From: Kiritimatiellia bacterium
GTDB taxonomy: Bacteria > Verrucomicrobiota > Kiritimatiellia > RFP12 > UBA1067
Assembly (NCBI GenBank): GCA_017520845.1
Contig: JAFXEU010000052.1
Span: forward strand, 23,621-87,620
Reading direction: 5' to 3'
Length of the DNA: 64,000 nucleotides
Part shown: piece after piece, positions 13,843-62,666 of the stretch
Layout of the letters: each line of letters begins with the position of its first letter
How positions within the stretch are numbered: position 1 is the first letter of the stretch
Position numbers and translations under genes: made by a program
The notes under the pieces: generated by a model
What the model was told of the DNA's origin: nothing
Seen by the model: only the letters and a program-made list of their open reading frames with translations
The model's database searches: none

Positions 13843-16184
13843 TTATCCGTCCCCTTTCCCACGGCCTGATTCATCAGAAGCACGTAATGCTTTCTGGCGA
13901 TCGGGTTTCCGATCTTGTCGAGATACCTGCCGAAGACTTCGCGAGCCTCTTCGCCCGTAAGCATCTTGTACGAGCGCGGCGCGCCGCGAAACGCCCTGCG
14001 GCGATAGCGCGCGTAATACTCTTCGGCGGCAGGCGCCCCCTCGCGGTAGACGCGACGGAGAAACCACTTGCGGATTCTTTCCACCTCGTTGATGTCGGCC
14101 GTCCAGCCGATGCGCCCGAAGAGCCACCCGTTCATCATCGCCGTGGGCTTTTTATAGTCGTTCACCCACGCGAGCTCGGAGCCTATTGACGTTGCGCCAA
14201 GCGAAGTGTACCACTTATAGTCTTCCGCGGCGGCCTCGATAGCCGTCGTGTCGGCCCGCAGGAGCGGTCCGAAGGCAAGATAATCGTAAACGCGCATCTC
14301 TCCGCCGAGAGACTTCATCTTCAGCGTATTTTCGTAATATCCCCTGTTGAGAGGATGATAGACAGGCACATTCCCCGACGCCCTCTTGTGCCAGGGACAG
14401 GTAATCCAGACCACATTGTCGGAGATTTTGCATTTGGGGGCAGGGTACTGGAAGAGATATGCGAGAATCTCAGTCTTCACGCCGGGACACTCTTTCGCTA
14501 TCCCGTCCGCCATCGCATTGACGAACTGCATGTACTGGGTCGAGCGATAAAGCATCTCCTCGGCCGTCATGCCGCCTTTGCTCGTCTTGCCGTTCGACTT
14601 GAGAATCGTGCCGTCATCGCACTTGATGGGTTTCGTGCAGCCTTCGCAAACGCATACGCGCCAATTGTCCTCATTCCAGAAGCCAAGAGAGACGATCGGG
14701 TACGGGACCTTCTCCGCCAACGACTTCTTGACCTTCTTCACCCCGTTGGAAATCGCGATCTGGACCGCATCGGGCCCGCTCAGGCAGACCTGTCCGTTGT
14801 AGTAGCTGTGGGGAATGCGTTTCTCGCCGTCGAACGTCATGTACGGTTCCGTCTTGGGGAAGAACTCGATCATCTCTCCGGAACGCGCCGCGTGACCGGA
14901 AAGCCTGTGCACCATGCGCACCGTCGAAAAGTTGCGCGCCCTCCACATGTCCGCATGAAGGACGGGAATCTTGCGCACATTGCGGTAGTCGTTGCCCGAA
15001 AGCCAGCCGCGCGCGCCTGTGGCGGGCTTGTCGCGGCCATTGCCCCAGCGGACCGTGAAATCGGGAGATTCGTCATAGACGGTACCGAACTTTGGATCTG
15101 CCGCCGCAAACACGATCGTCGAATTGTTTTCGAGAAATGCAACCGCACCGCGAAACACCCCGACGGCGCAGGCGTCTCGCGGCAGACCGCAAGATGCGGC
15201 ATTTTCGCTTGTCGTGCCGTTCGGGACGGCGCATCCGATATGGATGTCACGCCCCTTTGTGCGAACGAACCACCCGTCTATGCCTTTCGCATCCTTCAGC
15301 CATTCGACATCCTCCCTCCAGAGTTTGTGCGCTTCGTCCGAATTGAGGAAGATTCTGTATTTGACAGTTCCGGTAGGCGCCTCTACAATCGCAATCTTCG
15401 CGCCCGTCATCTTGCCTATCCAATACTGAAGTTCTCGCGCGGCAAGCTCGACAGAGCCGTAGACGTCTTTAGGAGCGACAATCTCCACATGGGCGACACC
15501 ATTCTCGACGATCTTGAGCGGCTTTTCAAGCCGACCTTCTGCAGGCGGCTCTAGCGCCCATGAAGAATCGGACATATCAGGTTCGTACTTGTCGCACCAG
15601 GCAAGCCACTTCCTGAAAAGCATGTCGCGCGGAGTACCCTTCCACGAATCTTCGCGGAAAAGACGGATATCCGAAATCCATATCTTCCTGGTCGCGCTTT
15701 CGTCTTCACCACCCTCGGGAAGAACGGTCATGCGGATGCGCGTCATGCGCCTGCAATCTATCCAGCTCGCCCAGTACGGCTCGTGCACGAGTTCGCGCCT
15801 AACGCGCGTCAGCAGCGTCTCCGTCTTCACCGCCTTCTCGTTCATGGTCCCGTGGACATTGTACCCGCCGCGGTACTCGACTATCGTCCGCACCGGGAAG
15901 GTGCGCTCGATGCAATAGTCGATCACCTGGTAGTCGTTCATCATATCGACACCACCCAGAGGTATCTCGATGAACAGGGTAAACCCCTTTCTGCACGGAA
16001 ATTCTACACAGTAGGCAGGCCTCGTCTCTCCGCCGAAATCGTGCGGAGCGCATGTAACGCGACACTCCTTGGCTCGGTTTGTCGGGATGTCCAGTTTGAA
16101 CTTTTCTGGCCTGATGATATGAGACAGCGCCTCAGCACCCGCTAAAAACGGCAGAAGAAGAAATATTAAGACTATTTTTTTCAT
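13839..16184 (-). CDS. large secreted hypothetical protein (781 aa), paralog of 9321-12689
   Basis: Signal peptide MKKIVLIFLLLPFLAGA. Alignable to 9321-12689 over the C-terminal ~450 aa (CVCEGCTKPIKCDDG...LYRSTQY vs CQCSECLTPIRLADG...AFRSTQY). Confidence 0.5.
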   Translation of the reverse strand: MKKIVLIFLLLPFLAGAEALSHIIRPEKFKLDIPTNRAKECRVTCAPHDFGGETRPAYCVEFPCRKGFTLFIEIPLGGVDMMNDYQVIDYCIERTFPVRTIVEYRGGYNVHGTMNEKAVKTETLLTRVRRELVHEPYWASWIDCRRMTRIRMTVLPEGGEDESATRKIWISDIRLFREDSWKGTPRDMLFRKWLAWCDKYEPDMSDSSWALEPPAEGRLEKPLKIVENGVAHVEIVAPKDVYGSVELAARELQYWIGKMTGAKIAIVEAPTGTVKYRIFLNSDEAHKLWREDVEWLKDAKGIDGWFVRTKGRDIHIGCAVPNGTTSENAASCGLPRDACAVGVFRGAVAFLENNSTIVFAAADPKFGTVYDESPDFTVRWGNGRDKPATGARGWLSGNDYRNVRKIPVLHADMWRARNFSTVRMVHRLSGHAARSGEMIEFFPKTEPYMTFDGEKRIPHSYYNGQVCLSGPDAVQIAISNGVKKVKKSLAEKVPYPIVSLGFWNEDNWRVCVCEGCTKPIKCDDGTILKSNGKTSKGGMTAEEMLYRSTQYMQFVNAMADGIAKECPGVKTEILAYLFQYPAPKCKISDNVVWITCPWHKRASGNVPVYHPLNRGYYENTLKMKSLGGEMRVYDYLAFGPLLRADTTAIEAAAEDYKWYTSLGATSIGSELAWVNDYKKPTAMMNGWLFGRIGWTADINEVERIRKWFLRRVYREGAPAAEEYYARYRRRAFRGAPRSYKMLTGEEAREVFGRYLDKIGNPIARKHYVLLMNQAVGKGTDK

Positions 16185-16225: not shown

Positions 16226-19200
16226 TTATCTGACTATGACCCTAAAGCCCTGCATTATCTCCAATTCAAAGCAACCTAAATCTACCCGGTCTCCGTAAAC
16301 CCTCGCCTTGCCCGAAAGATCAAGCGCGCCTTTCATCCACTCTTGCCTTATGCCGGCATTTAACGCCGGGGACCTGCGGCCAAAGGTATAGTCGTCGTTC
16401 AAAAGAGGATCTGCGGCGAGATTGCCTTCTCCCGCGACCTCCCCCTTCGTGAGCGTATATGTAGCCGCAGCGCCGCCGGAAAGCACCAGGTTTCCATCAA
16501 TCCAAGACTGATTTTTTCGTTGACCGCCGTTATCGAAGCAAATTGAGTTTATTATGGAGCCGGCGAGCAAATATACACCGCCCGCAGCCTGATGGACGCA
16601 AGACCTGTTGCCTACGATTGTACAGTTCTCGACAGCCGCGCCGGCGGAATAGCTCGCGCTTTCGGTCGTTCTAACAGCGCCTGCAACTGGATAATCATAA
16701 ACTGTGTTATTCATCTGAGATATCGAATTGTTCACGATAAGACAGTTACGCACGGTCGTTTTATATCCGAGCAGCACACCGCAAGACGCCGCTTTGATAC
16801 TAGAATTGACAATATCGCCGACGGATGTCGTATTGTTGGAAATAACGCAGCTGTCGATAAGAACATTGCCGTAATCGGCGCTCCACTTCGTATCGGTATA
16901 ATATGACGCCGCATTTACTCCGATTCCGAGATAATATGCATTTCGGTTAAAATAGTTCTCATTGTTGAAAATCCTGCATTTCAATATCTTAGCGCCGCTA
17001 CCGGCGGCAACAGTTCCGCAGCGATAACCGAATTCGCGCATTTGATCGCTATTATTGTAAATATCGCAATCGACCAGAGACGACGCGCCGCCGTCAACGG
17101 TTATGACTCCGGCATATTTGTGACGGCTGATACAGCCAAAAACCTTAGACGACCCGATCGAGCCCTTCACGACCCATACGCACTTGCCCGCGGTGCCGGC
17201 GTTTCCATCACGGATAACGCTGTTGGTGATGACGCCGCCGTTAAGATAAACCCAATGTTCGACACAACCTTCAGATGCGCCCGTTGTAACGGCATTGCTT
17301 ATGACGCAATTGTCGACCGTGCCGGCGTTCACCATATTGAGCGCATAGCCGACATTGGTCCCCGTCGCAGACGTAGACGAAGTCCTCGCCCTTTGTATCG
17401 TGAGATTTTCAGCTCCCGCGCCGCCGCCTGCAAGCGAAAGGACGCGACGGGTGCCTTCACCGTCGAGAACCGTTTCCTCCGCAGTGGCGCCCGTTCCGAC
17501 GATACGGACCGGTCTGGAGATTGAGACCAGATACGATCCGTCGGCGCTGCAGCCCGAAGAAGCCGTATAAACACCGGGAGCGAGGTACACGACGCCCGGG
17601 GCATCCGCCTCCTCGCCGTAAACGGCTGCAACGGCATCGGCGATATTATGCGCCGCCTTTTCCCATGTATCGTACGGAGCGGTATTGCTCCCCGATGAAG
17701 AAACATAAGTCGCCGTCAACGCGCCATGAATGGTTGAAGTGCACTGAGATGATTTTCCGCCGAGCCATTCGGTTGTAAGCGTTACGGTAAAATCCGTAAA
17801 CTTGTGAGCGAACTTGTAGCGCCACTCGTTCGAGCCGGAAACCGTTTCTTCGACAACGGTGTTGCCGTCGCCGTCAACGATCTTCCACGTGTGGGAAACG
17901 ACTTCGTCAATATGATTCGGAAATGCCTCAAAAGCGATTTCCGCCCCCTTTGGACCGACAAAATCGGACGTCTGCGTAAACTCAACCAATCTTTCATCGG
18001 TATACACAAACTCATAGCAGCCCATATCATGCGCAGCATCTTGAGGGCGAAGCGTGCCTAAAATATCATCGGTCGGCGCTTCGGTTGCGGTTCCCGTATT
18101 ACGGCAAGGCGATTTTTCATTAAGCTCATAATTGCCGTTCTCGGGATTGGCGAAAAGCGGGTCCGAATTTATGCAACCCGTACCGGACATCGCCGTTGAC
18201 GAGCAGCAATATGCGGCATCAACCTTCGTTCCGTTGGATTCTACTTTAAAATTGACAGCCCCTTCAGGTCCATTCCCGTAGAAAATCGAATTACGAACAT
18301 ATGCCGCCACATTCTTGAGGTATATGCCGTGCGACCGGAAACGGCTGACTTCCGTATCGATAGAGTTGTTCACGACCGTGCAATTGAAAACCTTTGTTCC
18401 GGCCGTGTCTACACGAAGCCCCCCTGCATAAAACCAGGTGGTTGTCGTGCCTGAACGCGGATTAGTTATACGGTTACCGTATATCAGCAGATTCTCAAGT
18501 TTCGACGCGCCGTTCGCGACCCACACGCCTCCTACGCAAGCGGAATACGCCATGTTGTTTCTGACGACAGTTCGGCGAACCGTTGCCGCGCCGTTAAGAT
18601 AAATCGGAGCGCTATCGAAGAGGGGACTGGCGGCCGTATCATTTTCGGTATAATTATTCTCAACGACACAATCTTCTATAAGCGCTCCGGTCGAATGAAC
18701 TCTGATGCCGGGAGTCGCTCCGGTGAATTTTTCATGTGCAAGCAATCTATTATTCGCGACGACGGTTTTTGAAAGCGAGGAATTGCCGCTCATGTAAACC
18801 ATCCCGATTCCGATTGAGCGGATTACATTGTTGGTCACATGACATTGCGTCATTTCGGAATTCGACAACACGACCCCGGCTCCGCCCAACGAATAATTCT
18901 TTCCGTTTTTATATGTGGCATTCCTGATGACGGACTTTTCGATTTTGCTTTGCAGACTCAACGAAACCAACCGCCCTTGATAGCTCCACGTACCGTCAGG
19001 CGCCTTAGCGGTCCCGGGATCAACCGCCGCATCCGTAAAAATGCAGTTTGAAACCAAAGCCCCGTCCTGCGCGGTCAAAACCCTGTATTTCAAGGTGTCG
19101 TCCTTCGTGCACCTCGCCCCCTTGAAAGTGAGATTCTTTACAACGCCGTTGGTAACGTAAAGAAGCGAAGCCGATGTCGTATCGGAAGCGGTGGCGCTAT

Positions 19201-32622: not shown

Positions 32623-32699
32623 TGGTGCGACTGACTGGGATCGAACCAGCAACCTTCGGCTTCGGAGGCCAACGCTCTATCCAATTGAGCTACAGTCGC
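32623..32699 (-). tRNA. tRNA-Arg (anticodon CCG)
   Basis: The reverse complement reads GCGACTGTAGCTCAATTGGATAGAGCGTTGGCCTCCGAAGCCGAAGGTTGCTGGTTCGATCCCAGTCAGTCGCACCA. It has a 7-bp acceptor stem (GCGACTG/CAGTCGC), a D-arm, the anticodon loop CTCCGAA, the T-arm GGTTCGATCC and an encoded CCA. Very similar to E. coli tRNA-Arg(CCG). Confidence 0.85.
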
Positions 32700-37505: not shown

Positions 37506-40346
37506 TTAAAGAAATTTCGCCGTAAACGATCTCGGCGACGATTTTACTTTTTCAAGCGGTCCTTCCACGACGACCTCTCCTCCGCCCGATCCGCCGCCGG
37601 GTCCCATGTCGACAATCCAGTCTGCCGATCGGATAACATCGATATTGTGCTCGATGACAATTATCGTATTTCCCTGGTCGCGCAGCTTGAGGAGAAGGTT
37701 CATCAGTTTGGCAACGTCATCAAAGTGAAGGCCCGTCGTAGGCTCGTCGAGAAGATAGAGCGTCCTGCCTGTCGAGCGCTTCGAAAGTTCTGTCGCGAGC
37801 TTTATGCGCTGCGCCTCACCCCCCGAAAGCGTCGTCGCCGACTGCCCGAGAGCGATGTACCCTAAGCCCACATCAACAAGCGTTTTAAGTTTCCTCGCAA
37901 GCGACGGAACCTTCGCGAAAAATTCGTACGCCTCCGCGACCGTCATCTCCAACACTTCGGCGATTGACTTTCCGCCATAGGTGACTTCAAGCGTCTCCGC
38001 ATTGAAGCGCTTACCTCCGCACTGTTCGCACGTCACGTACACATCCGGCAGAAAACTCATCTCAAGCTTTCGTAATCCGTCGCCGCCGCAGACTTCACAG
38101 CGCCCGCCTTTAACGTTGAACGAGAAGCGTCCCGCCGTGTATCCGCGCGCGCGCGCAGCCTCGGTCTTCGCGAAGAGTTCGCGTATCTCCGAGAAAAATC
38201 CGACATACGTCGCGGGATTGGAGCGCGGCGTACGGCCGATCGGGGACTGATCAATCTCAATCACCTTGTCAAAATTTTCGTCGCCCGTAAGCTTTTTATA
38301 TTTCCCAGGTCTCGCTTTTGAATTGTAGAATTTTTTCATCAGCGCCCGCTTGAGGGTTTCCTCAACGAGTGTTGACTTGCCCGAGCCGGAAACTCCAGAC
38401 ACCACCGTAAATGCACCAATGGGAAAATGCGCCGTCACGTTCTTCAGATTGTGCTCCGAGCAGTCCGAGATAGAGAGGAAGGAGTTAGTGGTTAGGGGAT
38501 AGGGGATAGGGGTCAGGGAAGCATTTCTTTTAACTCCTTTACCGACTCCTGACCTCTGACTCCTGACTCCTGACTCCTGAGAGGAGACTTTCTTCTCTCC
38601 CGTCAGATACTGCGCCGTGAGAGAGCCGCATTTCAAAAGCCCGTCAAAATCGCCTTGATACATGACGCGCCCGCCCTCGCGCCCTGCGCCGGGGCCGAGA
38701 TCGACTATCCAATCGGCGGCACGCATCATCTCCTCGTCGTGCTCAACGATGACCACCGTATTGCCGCGGTCGCGAAGCCCCTTCAACGTCGCGATAAGCC
38801 GCTCGTTGTCGCGTGGATGAAGCCCGATTGTCGGCTCGTCGAGAACATAAAGAACTCCCGTCAATCCGGAGCCGATCTGGGTCGCCAGCCGTATGCGCTG
38901 CATTTCTCCGCCCGAAAGCGTCGACGACGCGCGATCGAGAGTAAGGTAATCAAGCCCGACATCGATAAGAAACTTAAGACGCCGGCGTATCTCCTTCATA
39001 ACTTCACCGAGTCCCGCGAAACGCGTATCGCCCTTCTCGTCGATCGACTCGAAAAACTTAAGGGCGTCGGTGATGCTCATCGCCATCACCTCGACGATCG
39101 TTCTGCCCGCGACGCGCGCGGCCCGCGATTCCGGCCTGAGCCTCGCGCCGTTACATTCGGGGCAGACCTTGTAACTCTGGTACGATTCGTACTTCGAGCG
39201 CGTCTCGTCGTCTTCCGCCTCTTCAAGACGCTTTTGAAGAACGGCCAAAACACCTTCGAAGGGTCTATCGACGCTCCGCCACGGGAGGATAAGATCGTCC
39301 TTGAAGCCGTGCATCAGGTTTTTGCGGAATCCCGCCGGCAACTTTTCATAAGGCGTTGAAAGATCGACCTTGTACTGCCTGGAGATCTGCTCCAAAAGCG
39401 CATTGTAGTACATTATCGCGTTATGGCCCGCGCGGCGCCACGGATGGATGCACTCTCTTAACGGAAGCGTCTTGTCGGGAACAACGAGATCCTCGTCGAA
39501 AAAATACAGCTGGCCCAATCCCGAACATACAGGGCATGCGCCAAACGGCGAGTTGAACGAAAAGCTGCGGGGCTTGAGCTCGTCGAATGAAATGCCGCAA
39601 TCGACACAGGCGTTCAGTTCGGAATAAACGACGCTCTTGCCGGTTTCGACATATTCCACGCTCAATATCCCGCCGCCCGATTTAAGCGCCAGTTCCACGG
39701 AATCCGTAAGGCGCGTTCTGTCGCAGGGCAGAACGACGCGGTCGACGACAATATCGATGTTGTGGGATTTTTTCTTATCGAGCTCAGGAACCTCTTCGAT
39801 CATGTAAACGGATCCGTTGACCCGCACGCGCGCGAAGCCTTTGCGCTTCAACTCCTCGAATATATTTTCGTGACGGCCCTTTTTCCCCTTGACGGCAGGG
39901 GCGTAGATTACGGCCTTACCTGTCGTTTTCAAAACGGAATCCACAATCTCCTCGGCGCTTTGACGCTGAACGGGCCTGCCGCATTCGGGGCAGTGGGCGA
40001 TCGCGGCTGAACCGTATAGGATACGAAGATAGTCGTGTATCTCGGTAACGGTCGCCACGATAGAGCGCGGATTACCGCTCGTCGTTCTCTGTTCAATCGA
40101 AATCGCGGGACTTAATCCTTCGATCTTCTCGACGTCCGGTTTCGCGAGCCGGTCGAGAAACTGCCGCGCATAAGCCGAAAGCGACTCGACGTATCTGCGC
40201 TGGCCCTCCGCATAAAGCGTATCAAACGCGAGCGACGACTTACCGCTCCCGGAAAGTCCCGTCACGACGGTTAGTGAATTGCGCGGAATCGTTACGTCGA
40301 TCCCCTTAAGGTTGTGCATCCGCGCATTTGTTATCTCAATATCCAT
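37506..40346 (-). CDS. uvrA: excinuclease ABC subunit A, carrying an in-frame ~90-bp repeat-element insertion in the inter-half linker
   Basis: Two ABC ATPase halves with zinc-finger insertions. The start is [15 protein letters not shown] (cf. E. coli MDKIEVRGARTHNLKN). The linker GEKKV-[[39 protein letters not shown]][11 protein letters not shown] is encoded by the heptamer element at 38491-38582. Confidence 0.9.
38491..38582. repeat. heptamer-repeat element inside uvrA: (GGGGWTA)x5 G-quadruplex motif GGGGATAGGGGATAGGGGTCAGGG + 25-nt spacer + (CTGACYC)x5
   Basis: Seen directly. It is in frame with uvrA. A second copy with the same architecture and orientation lies in coaE (51199-51280). Confidence 0.7.
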
Positions 40347-40353
40347 ATTCGCC

Positions 40354-41130
40354 TCAACGCGTCTCTTCAAGCGGTTCATTGTCGCGCGATCTCAGAAGAA
40401 GCGAGGGATTCTCCCTGATTTCGTCAGCGAACTCCCTCAGCGACGCGGAGGCCGCCGACAGATTTTCAAGAATCACGCTGATCTGAGGAGTTGAGGTTTC
40501 GACAAGGACGTCCAGATCGGAGGTAAGCTTCGCCGTCGATTCGACAATCTCGGTGACATTGCTGCCGACGCTCGGGAGATTCATTCTGTTCAGGTGATTT
40601 ACCGTCCGCGTCAGCGAGTCCGCGAAATTCTCAAACATCGACGGCGCGGGCGGAATCATGGTATGCCTCGGATTCCATGAAATCGGAGCCGGGTCCTGCG
40701 GCGTACGCGGATAATCGAGTTCCAACCGCGACAGTCCCGTTATTCCGTTTGAACGTACGGTCGCGCGAAGCCCCATTTTGACCTTCTGCTCGAGAGCGCG
40801 AGCGGCCGACGCATCCTGCCCCAATCCCATCAAATCCGTATCTACGGAAAAAAGAATGTGTATTTTCTCGCGGTCCGCCTCGTTGGCGGTAGGGTAATCC
40901 CGTCCGACGAAGGACACCGCCCTGACGGAACCGACCTTGACTCCGCGGAACGTTATGGGGCTTCCCTCCGAAAGTCCCGAAACGGGATAGTTGTAATATG
41001 TCTCAAGCAGAATTTCCCTGGAACCGTTTACCCAACCGCCGAAATATGCGACTGTCGCGACGATGGCCGCAACGCCCAATATGACGATGAAGCCGATTTT
41101 GGCGTAACTAGGTGAATTGTCTCTTGCCAT
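40354..41130 (-). CDS. MCE-domain protein (MlaD/PqiB-like)
   Basis: N-terminal TM helix plus the MCE domain (ILLETYYNYPVSGLSEGSPITFRGVKVGSV). Confidence 0.7.
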   Translation of the reverse strand: MARDNSPSYAKIGFIVILGVAAIVATVAYFGGWVNGSREILLETYYNYPVSGLSEGSPITFRGVKVGSVRAVSFVGRDYPTANEADREKIHILFSVDTDLMGLGQDASAARALEQKVKMGLRATVRSNGITGLSRLELDYPRTPQDPAPISWNPRHTMIPPAPSMFENFADSLTRTVNHLNRMNLPSVGSNVTEIVESTAKLTSDLDVLVETSTPQISVILENLSAASASLREFADEIRENPSLLLRSRDNEPLEETR

Positions 41131-50922: not shown

Positions 50923-51510
50923 TTAGGCTTTGGACCTTGAAACGAGATAGTCGACCAGCTTGCGGGCTTCTGCCTTTAAGTCTTCATCGGTGGAATCGTT
51001 CAAAATCACATAATCTGATTTCGCCGCCTTTATCGCCGGATCCATCTGGGCGGCGAGTCGGGCTTCCGCTTCTTCGCGCGTATAGCCGCGCAAAGACGTC
51101 ATCCTCTCAATCTGCTTCTCGCGAGAGGAGAGGATGCAGATTATTATATCATAATCTTTCTCCCATTGCACCTCGAATAATAGCGGGATGACGGCGATTG
51201 GGGGAACGGGGAACGGGGAATGGGGACAGTCCCCTTTAACCTCCTGACTCCTAAATCCTGACTCCTGACTCCTGACCCCTTCTATCGCGGAGAGGATTTT
51301 CCGGCGGACGAGCGGGTGTATCCGCGCTTCAAGCTCCTTGCGGGCCTCGGGGTTTTTAAAAACGACTTTTCTCAGTCTCTCGCGCTCTTCTTGCGGTATG
51401 AGTTCATGAACTATGTCGTCAGCGTCGACTGTTACGACCCCTAAATCGTTCAGATAATGCGAAAGGAGGGATTTGCCAGAAGCAATCCCTCCCGTAATAC
51501 ATACTTTCAT
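50923..51510 (-). CDS. coaE: dephospho-CoA kinase carrying an in-frame heptamer-element insertion
   Basis: N-terminal P-loop MKVCITGGIASGKS. The insertion SAIEG-[VRSQESGFRSQEVKGDCPHSPFPVPPIA]-VIPLLFE is encoded by the element at 51199-51280. Confidence 0.75.
   Translation of the reverse strand: MKVCITGGIASGKSLLSHYLNDLGVVTVDADDIVHELIPQEERERLRKVVFKNPEARKELEARIHPLVRRKILSAIEGVRSQESGFRSQEVKGDCPHSPFPVPPIAVIPLLFEVQWEKDYDIIICILSSREKQIERMTSLRGYTREEAEARLAAQMDPAIKAAKSDYVILNDSTDEDLKAEARKLVDYLVSRSKA
51199..51280. repeat. second copy of the heptamer/G4 element: GGGGGAACGGGGAACGGGGAATGGGGACAGTCCCC + spacer + CTGACTCCTAAATCCTGACTCCTGACTCCTGACCCC, in frame inside coaE
   Basis: Seen directly. It has the same orientation relative to the host gene as the uvrA copy. 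Confidence 0.7.
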
Positions 51511-61497: not shown

Positions 61498-61538
61498 GAG
61501 TTACTAACGACTAACCACTAATCACTAACGACTAATCA
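61498..61538. repeat. heptamer tandem array ACTAACG-ACTAACC-ACTAATC-ACTAACG-ACTAATC-ACT directly abutting the ackA stop codon, in the ackA-pta intergenic spacer
   Basis: Seen directly. On the mRNA strand it reads (GRUUAGU)n, which puts UAG/UGA stop codons in all three frames. Confidence 0.6.
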
Positions 61539-62666
61539 CTCCCCAAGCACACGGACGGTGTCGCGGGCGATCATAAGCTCCTCGTTAGTCGGGATGATGA
61601 CGACGGGAATCTTAGACGCCTTCGTGGAGATAACCGCAACCTTGCCGCGCGTCTTGTTGGCCTTCTTGTCAAGCTTGATGCCGAGAGCGCCGAGACGGTT
61701 AATGATACGCTCGCGGACCTCGGAAGAATTCTCGCCGATACCGCCCGTCATGATGATCGCGTCGGCGCCGCCGATCACCGTATTGTACGCGCCGATGTAA
61801 AGCGCCATGCGGTAGGCGAGCATTTCAAGCGCGAGCTCGGCCATCTTGTCGCCCTTCTCGGCCTTGGAAACGATGTCGCGGCAGTCGCTCGAACCGGTAA
61901 GCGCGAGAAGGCCGGACTTCTTGTTGAGAATCGTATCCATCTCGGCGGGAGTTTTCTTCTCGGCCTCCATGATTGAGAGAACGGCGGCGGTATCGATATC
62001 TCCGCAGCGCGTACCCATGATGAGACCGGCGAGCGGCGTAAGACCCATCGTCGTATCGACGCACTGACCGTTCTTGACGGCGGCGAAAGACGAGCCGTTA
62101 CCCATGTGGCACGTGACGACGTTAAGTTTCGCGAGGGGCTTCTTCAAAAACTTCGCTGCCTCCTGGACGATGAACTTGTGGCTCGTACCGTGGAAACCGT
62201 ACTTGCGGATACCCATCTTCTTGTAGTACTTCGGATCAATCGCGTACATCGCCGCGCAGTCGGGCATCGTCTGATGGAACGCGGTGTCGAACACGGCGAC
62301 GTTGGGAACGCCCTTGAAGATTTTCTCGCACGCTTCGATGCCTCCGAGATTCGGCGGCATGTGAAGAGGCCCGAACTTGACGAGCTTCTTGCACTCGGCC
62401 ATAACCTTCTTGGTAACCTTTACGGAATCCTTGAAGACCTCGGCGCCGTGAAGGACGCGATGTCCGATAGCGTCGATATCCTTGGGGTTGCCGAGCTCCG
62501 CGACCACCTGCTTGAGAGCCTCGGTGTGATCCTTCGGTCCCCCGCATCCGATGCGCTCGACGAGACCCTTGGCGAGACGCTCGCCCTTCTTCATGCTGAA
62601 GAGCTGATATTTAAGAGAGCTTGAACCGGAGTTGATTACGAGAACTTTATCGATAGCTTTTTTCAT
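61536..62666 (-). CDS. ackA: acetate kinase
   Basis: N-terminal VLVINSGSSSLKYQLF acetate/propionate kinase signature. 376 aa. Lies in an operon with pta. Confidence 0.85.
   Translation of the reverse strand: MKKAIDKVLVINSGSSSLKYQLFSMKKGERLAKGLVERIGCGGPKDHTEALKQVVAELGNPKDIDAIGHRVLHGAEVFKDSVKVTKKVMAECKKLVKFGPLHMPPNLGGIEACEKIFKGVPNVAVFDTAFHQTMPDCAAMYAIDPKYYKKMGIRKYGFHGTSHKFIVQEAAKFLKKPLAKLNVVTCHMGNGSSFAAVKNGQCVDTTMGLTPLAGLIMGTRCGDIDTAAVLSIMEAEKKTPAEMDTILNKKSGLLALTGSSDCRDIVSKAEKGDKMAELALEMLAYRMALYIGAYNTVIGGADAIIMTGGIGENSSEVRERIINRLGALGIKLDKKANKTRGKVAVISTKASKIPVVIIPTNEELMIARDTVRVLGE

Follow-up and report, generated by a model that had tools for sequence, protein, structure and literature searches.

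A pair of heptamer arrays in the linker of uvrA

The DNA analysed here is a 64,000-nucleotide stretch from a Kiritimatiellia bacterium (contig JAFXEU010000052.1, G+C content ~55%), referred to below as the window, and our subject is a repeat element that lies in frame within its uvrA gene. The gene is on the minus strand (37506..40379), where a 957-aa open reading frame (ORF) encodes UvrA (E = 0 to 2r6f, 9gxk and 3pih). Because its homologues begin MDI..., the true start is probably M12, at position 40346. The closest proteins to this UvrA, and to the CoaE protein described below, are from Kiritimatiellae. Compared to 2r6f and 9gxk, which have a short linker, the window protein has extra residues located after the first ATP-binding cassette (ABC) half and before the strand that opens ATP-binding domain II.

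The element responsible (38481-38580) consists of two period-7 arrays flanking a 24-nt spacer, all of it in frame in the UvrA linker. On the plus strand, a G-rich heptamer arm (38481..38518) reads GGAGTTA GTGGTTA GGGGATA GGGGATA GGGGTCA GGG and contains a G-quadruplex (G4) motif. On the uvrA sense strand this is the 3′ C-rich arm, (CCCTRWC)n, which codes for 13 aa and will be called the C-arm. The second arm (38542..38580, minus strand) reads CCGACTC CTGACCT CTGACTC CTGACTC CTGACTC CTGA on the plus strand, i.e. (GACTCCT)n; in the sense direction it gives TCAGGAG three times followed by TCAGAGG, TCAGGAG and TCGG, again coding for 13 aa (the G-arm). The spacer that separates them (38518..38541, minus strand) has the sense sequence TAAAGGAGTTAAAAGAAATGCTTC and encodes the peptide KGVKRNAS.

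Direct reading, Tandem Repeats Finder (TRF) and a period scan all confirmed the repeat sequence and period-7 structure reported in a first-pass annotation of this DNA. Its view that the linker is encoded by repeat DNA rather than by ordinary coding sequence, with the uvrA reading frame preserved throughout, was also borne out. Some of its measurements need to be adjusted, however. The arms are indeed separated by a spacer, but one of 24 rather than 25 nt. They are imperfect inverted repeats as described, but are mutually complementary at just 70-77%. Lastly, what had been taken for a 39-aa insertion is a repeat-encoded peptide of ~36 aa standing in place of an ancestral linker of 14 aa, a net gain of ~22 aa.

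The G4 motif of the element (GGGGATAGGGGATAGGGGTCAGGG, 38495-38518) is canonical, has a G4Hunter score of 2.24 and lies on the plus strand, which is the uvrA template strand, as originally proposed. G3 tracts are absent from the (GGAGTCA)n arm. A second canonical motif was found in the coaE element described below (51200-51225, G4Hunter 2.48), also on the template strand. These two, both inside heptamer elements, are the only canonical G4 motifs on either strand of the 64 kb; shuffled sequences have 3.5 on average. The arms had further been expected to form a long hairpin. We considered this as a distinguishing property and rejected it: the hairpin predicted for the uvrA element RNA (-40.4 kcal/mol) is within the range of dinucleotide shuffles (z = -1.08, with 28 of 200 shuffles folding as well), and the coaE element RNA likewise folds no better than its dinucleotide shuffles (z = +1.35). 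An Rfam scan of the window gave no match at either element, the sole match being a tRNA gene at 32626-32699 (minus strand).

In the uvrA mRNA the second arm becomes (UCAGGAG)5, giving five AGGAG motifs and confirming the run of Shine-Dalgarno-like sequences that had been pointed out at this site. Shine-Dalgarno sites precede 24 of the 41 window genes, vs. a background of 23%. GGAGG stands 5′ of the uvrA ATG at 40346, and the longer ORF (to 40379) overlaps an mlaD-like gene upstream. Within the spacer (38521-38541, minus strand), AAGGAG is followed after 9 nt by an ATG, a perfect ribosome-binding arrangement; this ATG is out of the uvrA frame and opens an ORF of only three codons (MLP and a stop). 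Neither the AGGAG run nor the G4 motif is likely to be a selected signal; both probably result simply from the repeat sequence.

Further heptamer arrays in the window

The element was suspected to belong to a dispersed repeat family, and the window does contain further copies, in frame in coaE and 3′ of ackA. At equal threshold, TRF and the period scan identified five arrays of period 7 and none of periods 4-6 or 8-10. A 21-mer, (TCAGGAG)3, searched with up to 3 mismatches had seven matches in the window compared to 0.00 expected from shuffled controls, and the G-rich arm pattern had six (vs. 0.29 expected).

The period scan revealed a second two-armed element (51200..51279, minus strand), in frame in coaE (50923..51510, minus strand; Pfam CoaE), the gene for dephospho-CoA kinase. 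On the plus strand it reads GGGGGAAC GGGGAAC GGGGAAT GGGGAC, followed by a palindromic centre, GGGGACAGTCCCC (51222-51234), and then (CTCCTGA)5; the encoded peptide is GVRSQESGFRSQEVKGDCPHSPFPVPP. The centre is a near-perfect palindrome, GGGGAC-T-GTCCCC. The uvrA and coaE elements have the same orientation relative to their host genes and both are convergent, their G-rich strands running toward each other. The coaE site is empty in some relatives, whose CoaE proteins are 171-175 aa long, while one-armed forms occur in L128 and L123. In two-armed CoaE forms the centre is conserved (VKGDCP in the peptide), and VRSQESG and PNLSLTPNPSH are each present one to three times.

The copy near ackA is a one-armed array that starts at the stop codon of the gene (61499..61540, minus strand), with the sense units GTGATTA GTCGTTA GTGATTA GTGGTTA GTCGTTA and stop codons in all three frames. 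This brings the number of heptamer loci to three in the 64-kb window, with two more in ~50 kb of non-syntenic sequence from relatives. Heptamer arrays are present in the ackA-pta spacer of three genomes out of three (window 61499-61575, L127 1-30 and L128 34-96), with GTGATTA/GTCGTTA units in the window vs. AACTCTA/AAGCTCT in L127 and L128. In L125, (GTGATTA/GTSGTTA)n arrays occur directly 3′ of the stop codons of oadG and an oadA-like gene (15172-15222 and 17078-17113). The minus strand carries nearly all genes of the window, whose GC skew is negative over its full length.

The uvrA linker in related genomes

We compared the orthologous linker DNA of the window with that of L001, L002, L123, L124, L125, L126 and L127. 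Close relatives that carry the repeat have 90-98% identical UvrA proteins. Both arms and the same 24-nt spacer are found in the window, L001/L002, L126 and L127, and both arms without the spacer in L124. The alleles of L123 and L125 are one-armed, with only the sense (CCCTAAC)n arm (4 and 10 units, respectively), the second arm being absent. Among the two-armed alleles, the C-arm has 5, 2, 5 and 8 units and the G-arm (sense TCAGGAG) 5, 5, 5 and 8, respectively in the window, L001/L002, L126 and L127; arm lengths change in sets of three units, equivalent to 21 nt or 7 aa.

The composition of the arrays also follows the reading frame. In L125 the array runs CCCTAAC CCCTCTT CCCTAAC CCCTAAC CCCTGTC CCCTAAC CCCTAAC CCCTGTC; the variants all stand in every third unit, the phase in which TAA would be read in frame. 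The window unit that matches this phase is CCCTATC.

Outgroup UvrA proteins, at 79-83% identity, have a plain, non-repetitive 14-aa linker (VPDAPSKAKKFTKF), so that the insertion is lineage-specific, a point that the first-pass annotation had suggested checking. In a neighbour-joining tree calculated with the linker left out, the repeat is present in all clade members with UvrA at least 90% identical. Comparison of the orthologues shows, at the level of sequence, that the repeat replaced the plain 14-aa linker at the base of this clade. We claim no order of events from one-armed to two-armed alleles, since on the same tree the G-arm must have been gained or lost at least twice.

The linker is the only hypervariable segment among 120 UvrA homologues, whose total protein length ranges from 909 to 1006 aa, and in many lineages among these homologues the linker peptide has a periodicity of 7 or 8 residues. 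Other Kiritimatiellae hold quite different repeats at this position, which makes the site simply a permissive one. In L130 (11778-11860) the UvrA linker contains an in-frame octamer array, (TCTCAAAC)n, and in L129 (gene 102-1799) a duplicated 42-nt unit with GGGGTCTGACCCC palindromes. The peptide motifs PRGLTPMVA and DGRTAF recur in the UvrA linkers of several lineages, which suggests an element family resembling repetitive extragenic palindromic (REP) sequences.

An AlphaFold model of the window UvrA, built with 52 homologues, has residues 597-631, corresponding to the insert, as coil with a predicted local distance difference test (pLDDT) score of ~30. This is the longest very-low-confidence segment without secondary structure in the model. 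Together with the variation in linker length across the class, this agrees with the original idea that the repeat persists where the host protein tolerates an insertion. Tolerance would extend only to in-frame alleles as far as the record goes: no frameshifted or linker-truncated uvrA was found among 240 listed homologues, although consensus assemblies would miss rare variants, and all checkable matches in a protein search with the linker region cross the linker in frame.

The same heptamer in distant phyla

We scanned one genome per species with a 19-mer, CTGACTCCTGACTCCTGAC, and found the (GACTCCT)n/(AGGAGTC)n array at no fewer than 120 loci (L003-L122), compared to ~4 expected by chance according to our own estimate from 596 Gb and two strands. 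The matches listed include Cyanobacteria, Acidobacteriota, Gemmatimonadota, Bacteroidota, Verrucomicrobiota, Planctomycetota, Chloroflexota, Armatimonadota, Bacillota, Desulfobacterota and Nitrospirota, and many of the listed cross-phylum loci have the same two-armed layout. Many two-armed copies enclose a GC-rich, terminator-like hairpin (e.g. L011, L035, L037 and L111).

The pairs have a marked polarity. Of the paired period-7 arrays with a gap of up to 120 nt in L003-L122, 14 have the G-rich array followed by the C-rich one and none the reverse, in a set of loci ascertained through one arm. For array pairs with one arm of neutral composition, the count is 23 vs. 5.

A preference of the copies for the inside of genes, which had been raised for this family, was not found. 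Of 321 arrays, just 7.8% lie within a long ORF, defined as one with 60 or more open codons on both sides of the array, compared to 47.5% of random positions, a six-fold depletion, and in the window's own lineage 2 of the 5 sites are intragenic. Where GGAGTCA arrays do lie within genes, TCAGGAG is always the sense. No other orientation could be translated: (CTCCTGA)3 has a TGA in frame, whereas (TCAGGAG)n is open.

A metagenome scan with the two-armed pattern gave at least 120 matches, with 12 of 111 testable elements in long ORFs. Among the hosts identified with Pfam are an aspartokinase-type AA_kinase domain (L178 767-2701, minus strand), a response-regulator receiver domain, Response_reg (L142 2417-4198, minus strand), a Ser/Thr protein kinase domain, Pkinase (L150 36-1835, minus strand), and a glucan phosphorylase N-terminal domain (L197 3291-5969, plus strand). 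In these four environmental bacteria, (TCAGGGG)n...(CCCTGAC)n is in frame and encodes a peptide like RGQGSGV...LTPDP.

Relation to known heptamer repeats

The uvrA element has head-to-tail 7-nt units, a predicted G4 motif, convergent pairing and variation in unit number, the features of G-rich heptameric simple sequence repeats (SSRs). It belongs to this class, which is over-represented in many bacteria; what is new is the unit sequence, the host phylum and the presence of a translated pair in uvrA and coaE. A literal text search of the literature for the heptamers themselves returned primers only.

Several comparisons can be made. Cyanobacterial short tandemly repeated repetitive (STRR) heptamers, reportedly described by Mazel in 1990, are said to be dispersed tandem repeats with the units CCCCAGT, TTGGTCA and CAACAGT, and Elhai is said to have reported in 2008 small dispersed repeats (SDRs) inside the heptamer arrays of cyanobacteria. 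The arrays described here resemble STRRs as dispersed tandem heptanucleotides that sometimes lie within genes, but their units differ and their host is not a cyanobacterium. An SDR-like conserved core of 21-27 nt was not found in an alignment of the uvrA and coaE elements of the window and L127.

Members of the class known from other bacteria are the GGGAATC arrays of Xanthomonas and the GGGGA(C/T)T arrays of Nostoc PCC 7120 (Rehm et al. 2015, PMC4692102). The former number ~185 per genome, with 70-75 cases of convergent pairs. The intragenic share is 7-11% in Xanthomonas and 32% in Nostoc. These repeats form G4 structures in vitro, vary in copy and unit number between related strains and favour the sense strand just 3′ of stop codons, with no known function (PMC4692102). 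Our arrays are alike in having dispersed 7-nt units with a G-tract, of which about four or more make a G4 motif, as well as convergent pairs, unit numbers that differ between close relatives, a minority of intragenic copies and arrays close after stop codons. They differ in their units (GGGGATA/GGGGTCA/GGGGAAC and GGAGTCA) and phylum (Kiritimatiellae), and in that the pair is translated as part of conserved housekeeping genes, has unit variants that avoid stops and differs between alleles in 21-nt steps.

A second precedent is the TAACTGA heptamer, which Beggiatoaceae, Cyanobacteria and Bacteroidetes have in common although no mechanism of transfer is evident (MacGregor 2015, PMC4679880). One orientation of this repeat stops all reading frames and the other is occasionally translated at the protein periphery (PMC4679880). 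The parallels are evident: one heptamer shared by distant phyla, a stop-rich vs. a translatable orientation, and translated copies at tolerant positions. The TAACTGA repeats differ in being mostly just 5′ of start codons, not G-rich and rarely paired. According to the account of Mrazek 2007 given in the same paper (PMC4679880), most genomes have more heptanucleotides than any other long SSR, for which slippage tied to the polymerase footprint was proposed as the cause. The element was therefore overstated as unusual in the first-pass annotation, G-rich heptamer arrays, convergent pairs and intragenic copies having already been described (PMC4692102, PMC4679880).

Origin of the element

We propose that the uvrA element consists of two convergent, G-rich heptanucleotide microsatellites, driven by slippage and filtered for reading frame at a permissive, disordered linker, and give this explanation a probability of about 0.6. 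Unit number would change by slipped-strand mispairing during replication, and the survivors would be only those alleles in which uvrA, or the presumably essential coaE, remains in frame and free of stops. The 21-nt steps between alleles would follow from this survival of in-frame, stop-free changes. The opposed second arm would probably have arisen as an inverted copy, through a strand or template switch at the array, as the almost perfect palindrome in the middle of the coaE copy suggests. The encoded peptide would act as a passive, unstructured spacer. The steps of 21 nt, the stop-avoiding variant in every third unit, the forced orientation and the depletion in ORFs all fit slippage combined with a frame filter, and the one-armed and spacer-less alleles, as read from their sequences, point to array dynamics in situ. 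Rather than a new device, the element seems to be a passenger, tolerated and quick to change.

A number of points weigh against this explanation. Slippage is deduced from fixed alleles in different metagenome assemblies rather than from direct observation, and the UvrA tree, with its two or more gains or losses of the G-arm, does not give a simple history. The AlphaFold model, which places the insert in a disordered segment, is mediocre overall (mean pLDDT 64). Slippage alone does not account for how the arrays are seeded, and it leaves unexplained both the recurrence of GGAGTCA in about ten phyla and the strict G-rich-first pairing (14:0). The AGGAG run or the G4 on the template strand may also have a regulatory role; this organism makes use of Shine-Dalgarno sites.

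The first alternative to be weighed is a miniature mobile element, resembling a miniature inverted-repeat transposable element (MITE), a Rickettsia palindromic element (RPE) or an SDR, in which a (TCAGGAG)n-core-(CCCTAAC)n unit is inserted by a trans-acting enzyme and kept only where it is in frame in a tolerant loop. This would account for two unrelated genes of a single genome having composites alike in architecture and orientation, for the empty uvrA and coaE sites of outgroups, for the similar-peptide composites in frame in the AA_kinase, Response_reg, Pkinase and phosphorylase genes of unrelated environmental bacteria and for the identical heptamer in many phyla. In-frame MITEs are known, since RPEs are palindromic repeats found in frame in housekeeping genes (review PMC10969869). 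Like the elements described here, RPEs are palindromic repeat DNA that adds a peptide at structurally tolerant sites of unrelated housekeeping genes, but they are ~150 bp long, have a conserved family consensus and show neither microsatellite arrays nor variation in unit number.

In-frame insertion into unrelated genes is thus shared with MITEs and RPEs, but a consensus and terminal inverted repeats with target-site duplications are not. A conserved mobile core was tried as a candidate and rejected: when the uvrA and coaE elements of the window and L127 are aligned, similarity is confined to the arms and the spacers differ, their resemblance being marginal (p about 0.04), although only two copies are comparable in the window. 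The boundaries are simply the array ends, with no target-site duplications and no terminal repeats beyond the arrays. Alleles with one arm or no spacer share the site with complete ones, and arms differ in length by whole units. No transposase gene, or gene resembling a REP-associated tyrosine transposase (RAYT), turned up near any copy, though no search aimed at such genes was made. A transposable unit is unsupported because there is no conserved core or target duplication and because intermediate alleles exist, and we consider this explanation unlikely. Of the mobile or recombinogenic repeat family first envisaged, the repeat family stands and the mobility does not.

Could the element instead be a selected cis-regulatory signal, in which the G4, an mRNA hairpin or the AGGAG run slows transcription or translation between the ABC halves, for example as an aid to co-translational folding or to tune UvrA levels? 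It does lie exactly between the two halves, the sole two canonical G4 motifs of the 64 kb are in these elements and on the template strand, repeats of this kind form G4 structures in vitro in other species (PMC4692102), and the five Shine-Dalgarno-like motifs occur in an organism that uses such sites. Nevertheless, in close relatives one arm is missing or the unit numbers are very different, UvrA at 79-83% identity is entirely without the element, the same structure is found in coaE and in unrelated enzymes elsewhere, and the RNA folds no better than shuffles and has no Rfam match. Presence/absence polymorphism among close relatives does not sit easily with a regulatory effect, and this possibility appears to us distinctly unlikely.

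A more general idea, to which we give still less credence, is that the arrays, instead of being plain products of slippage, are scars of an unrecognised but widely conserved activity by which specific G-rich heptamers are added or copied at the 3′ ends of DNA, for example in the healing of ends or in fold-back synthesis where DNA has broken or forks have stalled. If true, it would explain the recurrence of GGAGTCA/GGGGTCA in about ten phyla, the G-rich strands of paired arrays always running 5′ to 3′ toward a palindromic centre, like healed ends joined head-to-head, and the de novo composites in conserved domains of unrelated genes. The cross-phylum heptamer and its G-first polarity pose a real question about how repeats are generated in bacteria, to which the uvrA locus alone gives no answer.

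The possibility of a contingency (phase-variation) locus, in which slippage by one or two units would reversibly switch uvrA off and create a repair-deficient or mutator state, is highly improbable. A 7-nt unit is not a multiple of three, the array is in the middle of the ORF, and array lengths demonstrably vary between strains. In having a slippage-prone unit of this kind within an expressed region, the element resembles known SSR contingency loci, e.g. the tetra- and heptanucleotide repeats of Haemophilus (PMC2651432); the differences are that no off-phase alleles were seen among the listed homologues and that the hosts are housekeeping genes, not surface or restriction-modification genes (cf. 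PMC4692102). The arrays are also short (5 units). A phase-variable uvrA was accordingly rejected as a candidate, the checkable matches of the linker search all being in frame. The gene coaE is essential in bacteria where this has been tested, and switching it off should therefore be lethal. Phase variation is unsupported because no off-frame alleles were seen, with no frameshifted or linker-truncated uvrA among the 240 listed homologues, and because the presumably essential coaE has the same element.

Lastly, an assembly or chimera artefact can be practically discounted: repeats can mislead short-read assemblers and the exact UvrA of the window is not on record, but the artefact is unsupported because four independent assemblies from different samples (L001, L002, L126 and L127) agree on the two-armed structure and spacer with the frame intact.

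These data extend the G-rich heptamer class, known mainly from intergenic sites in Xanthomonas and cyanobacteria, to gut or environmental bacteria of the Planctomycetes-Verrucomicrobia-Chlamydiae (PVC) group, and show that its members can reside in frame in core genes such as uvrA and coaE. The inserts lead to strain-specific, length-polymorphic peptides that inflate apparent protein diversity, and they can break assemblies and gene calls. By the same token, they provide high-resolution strain markers and flag loops that tolerate insertions.

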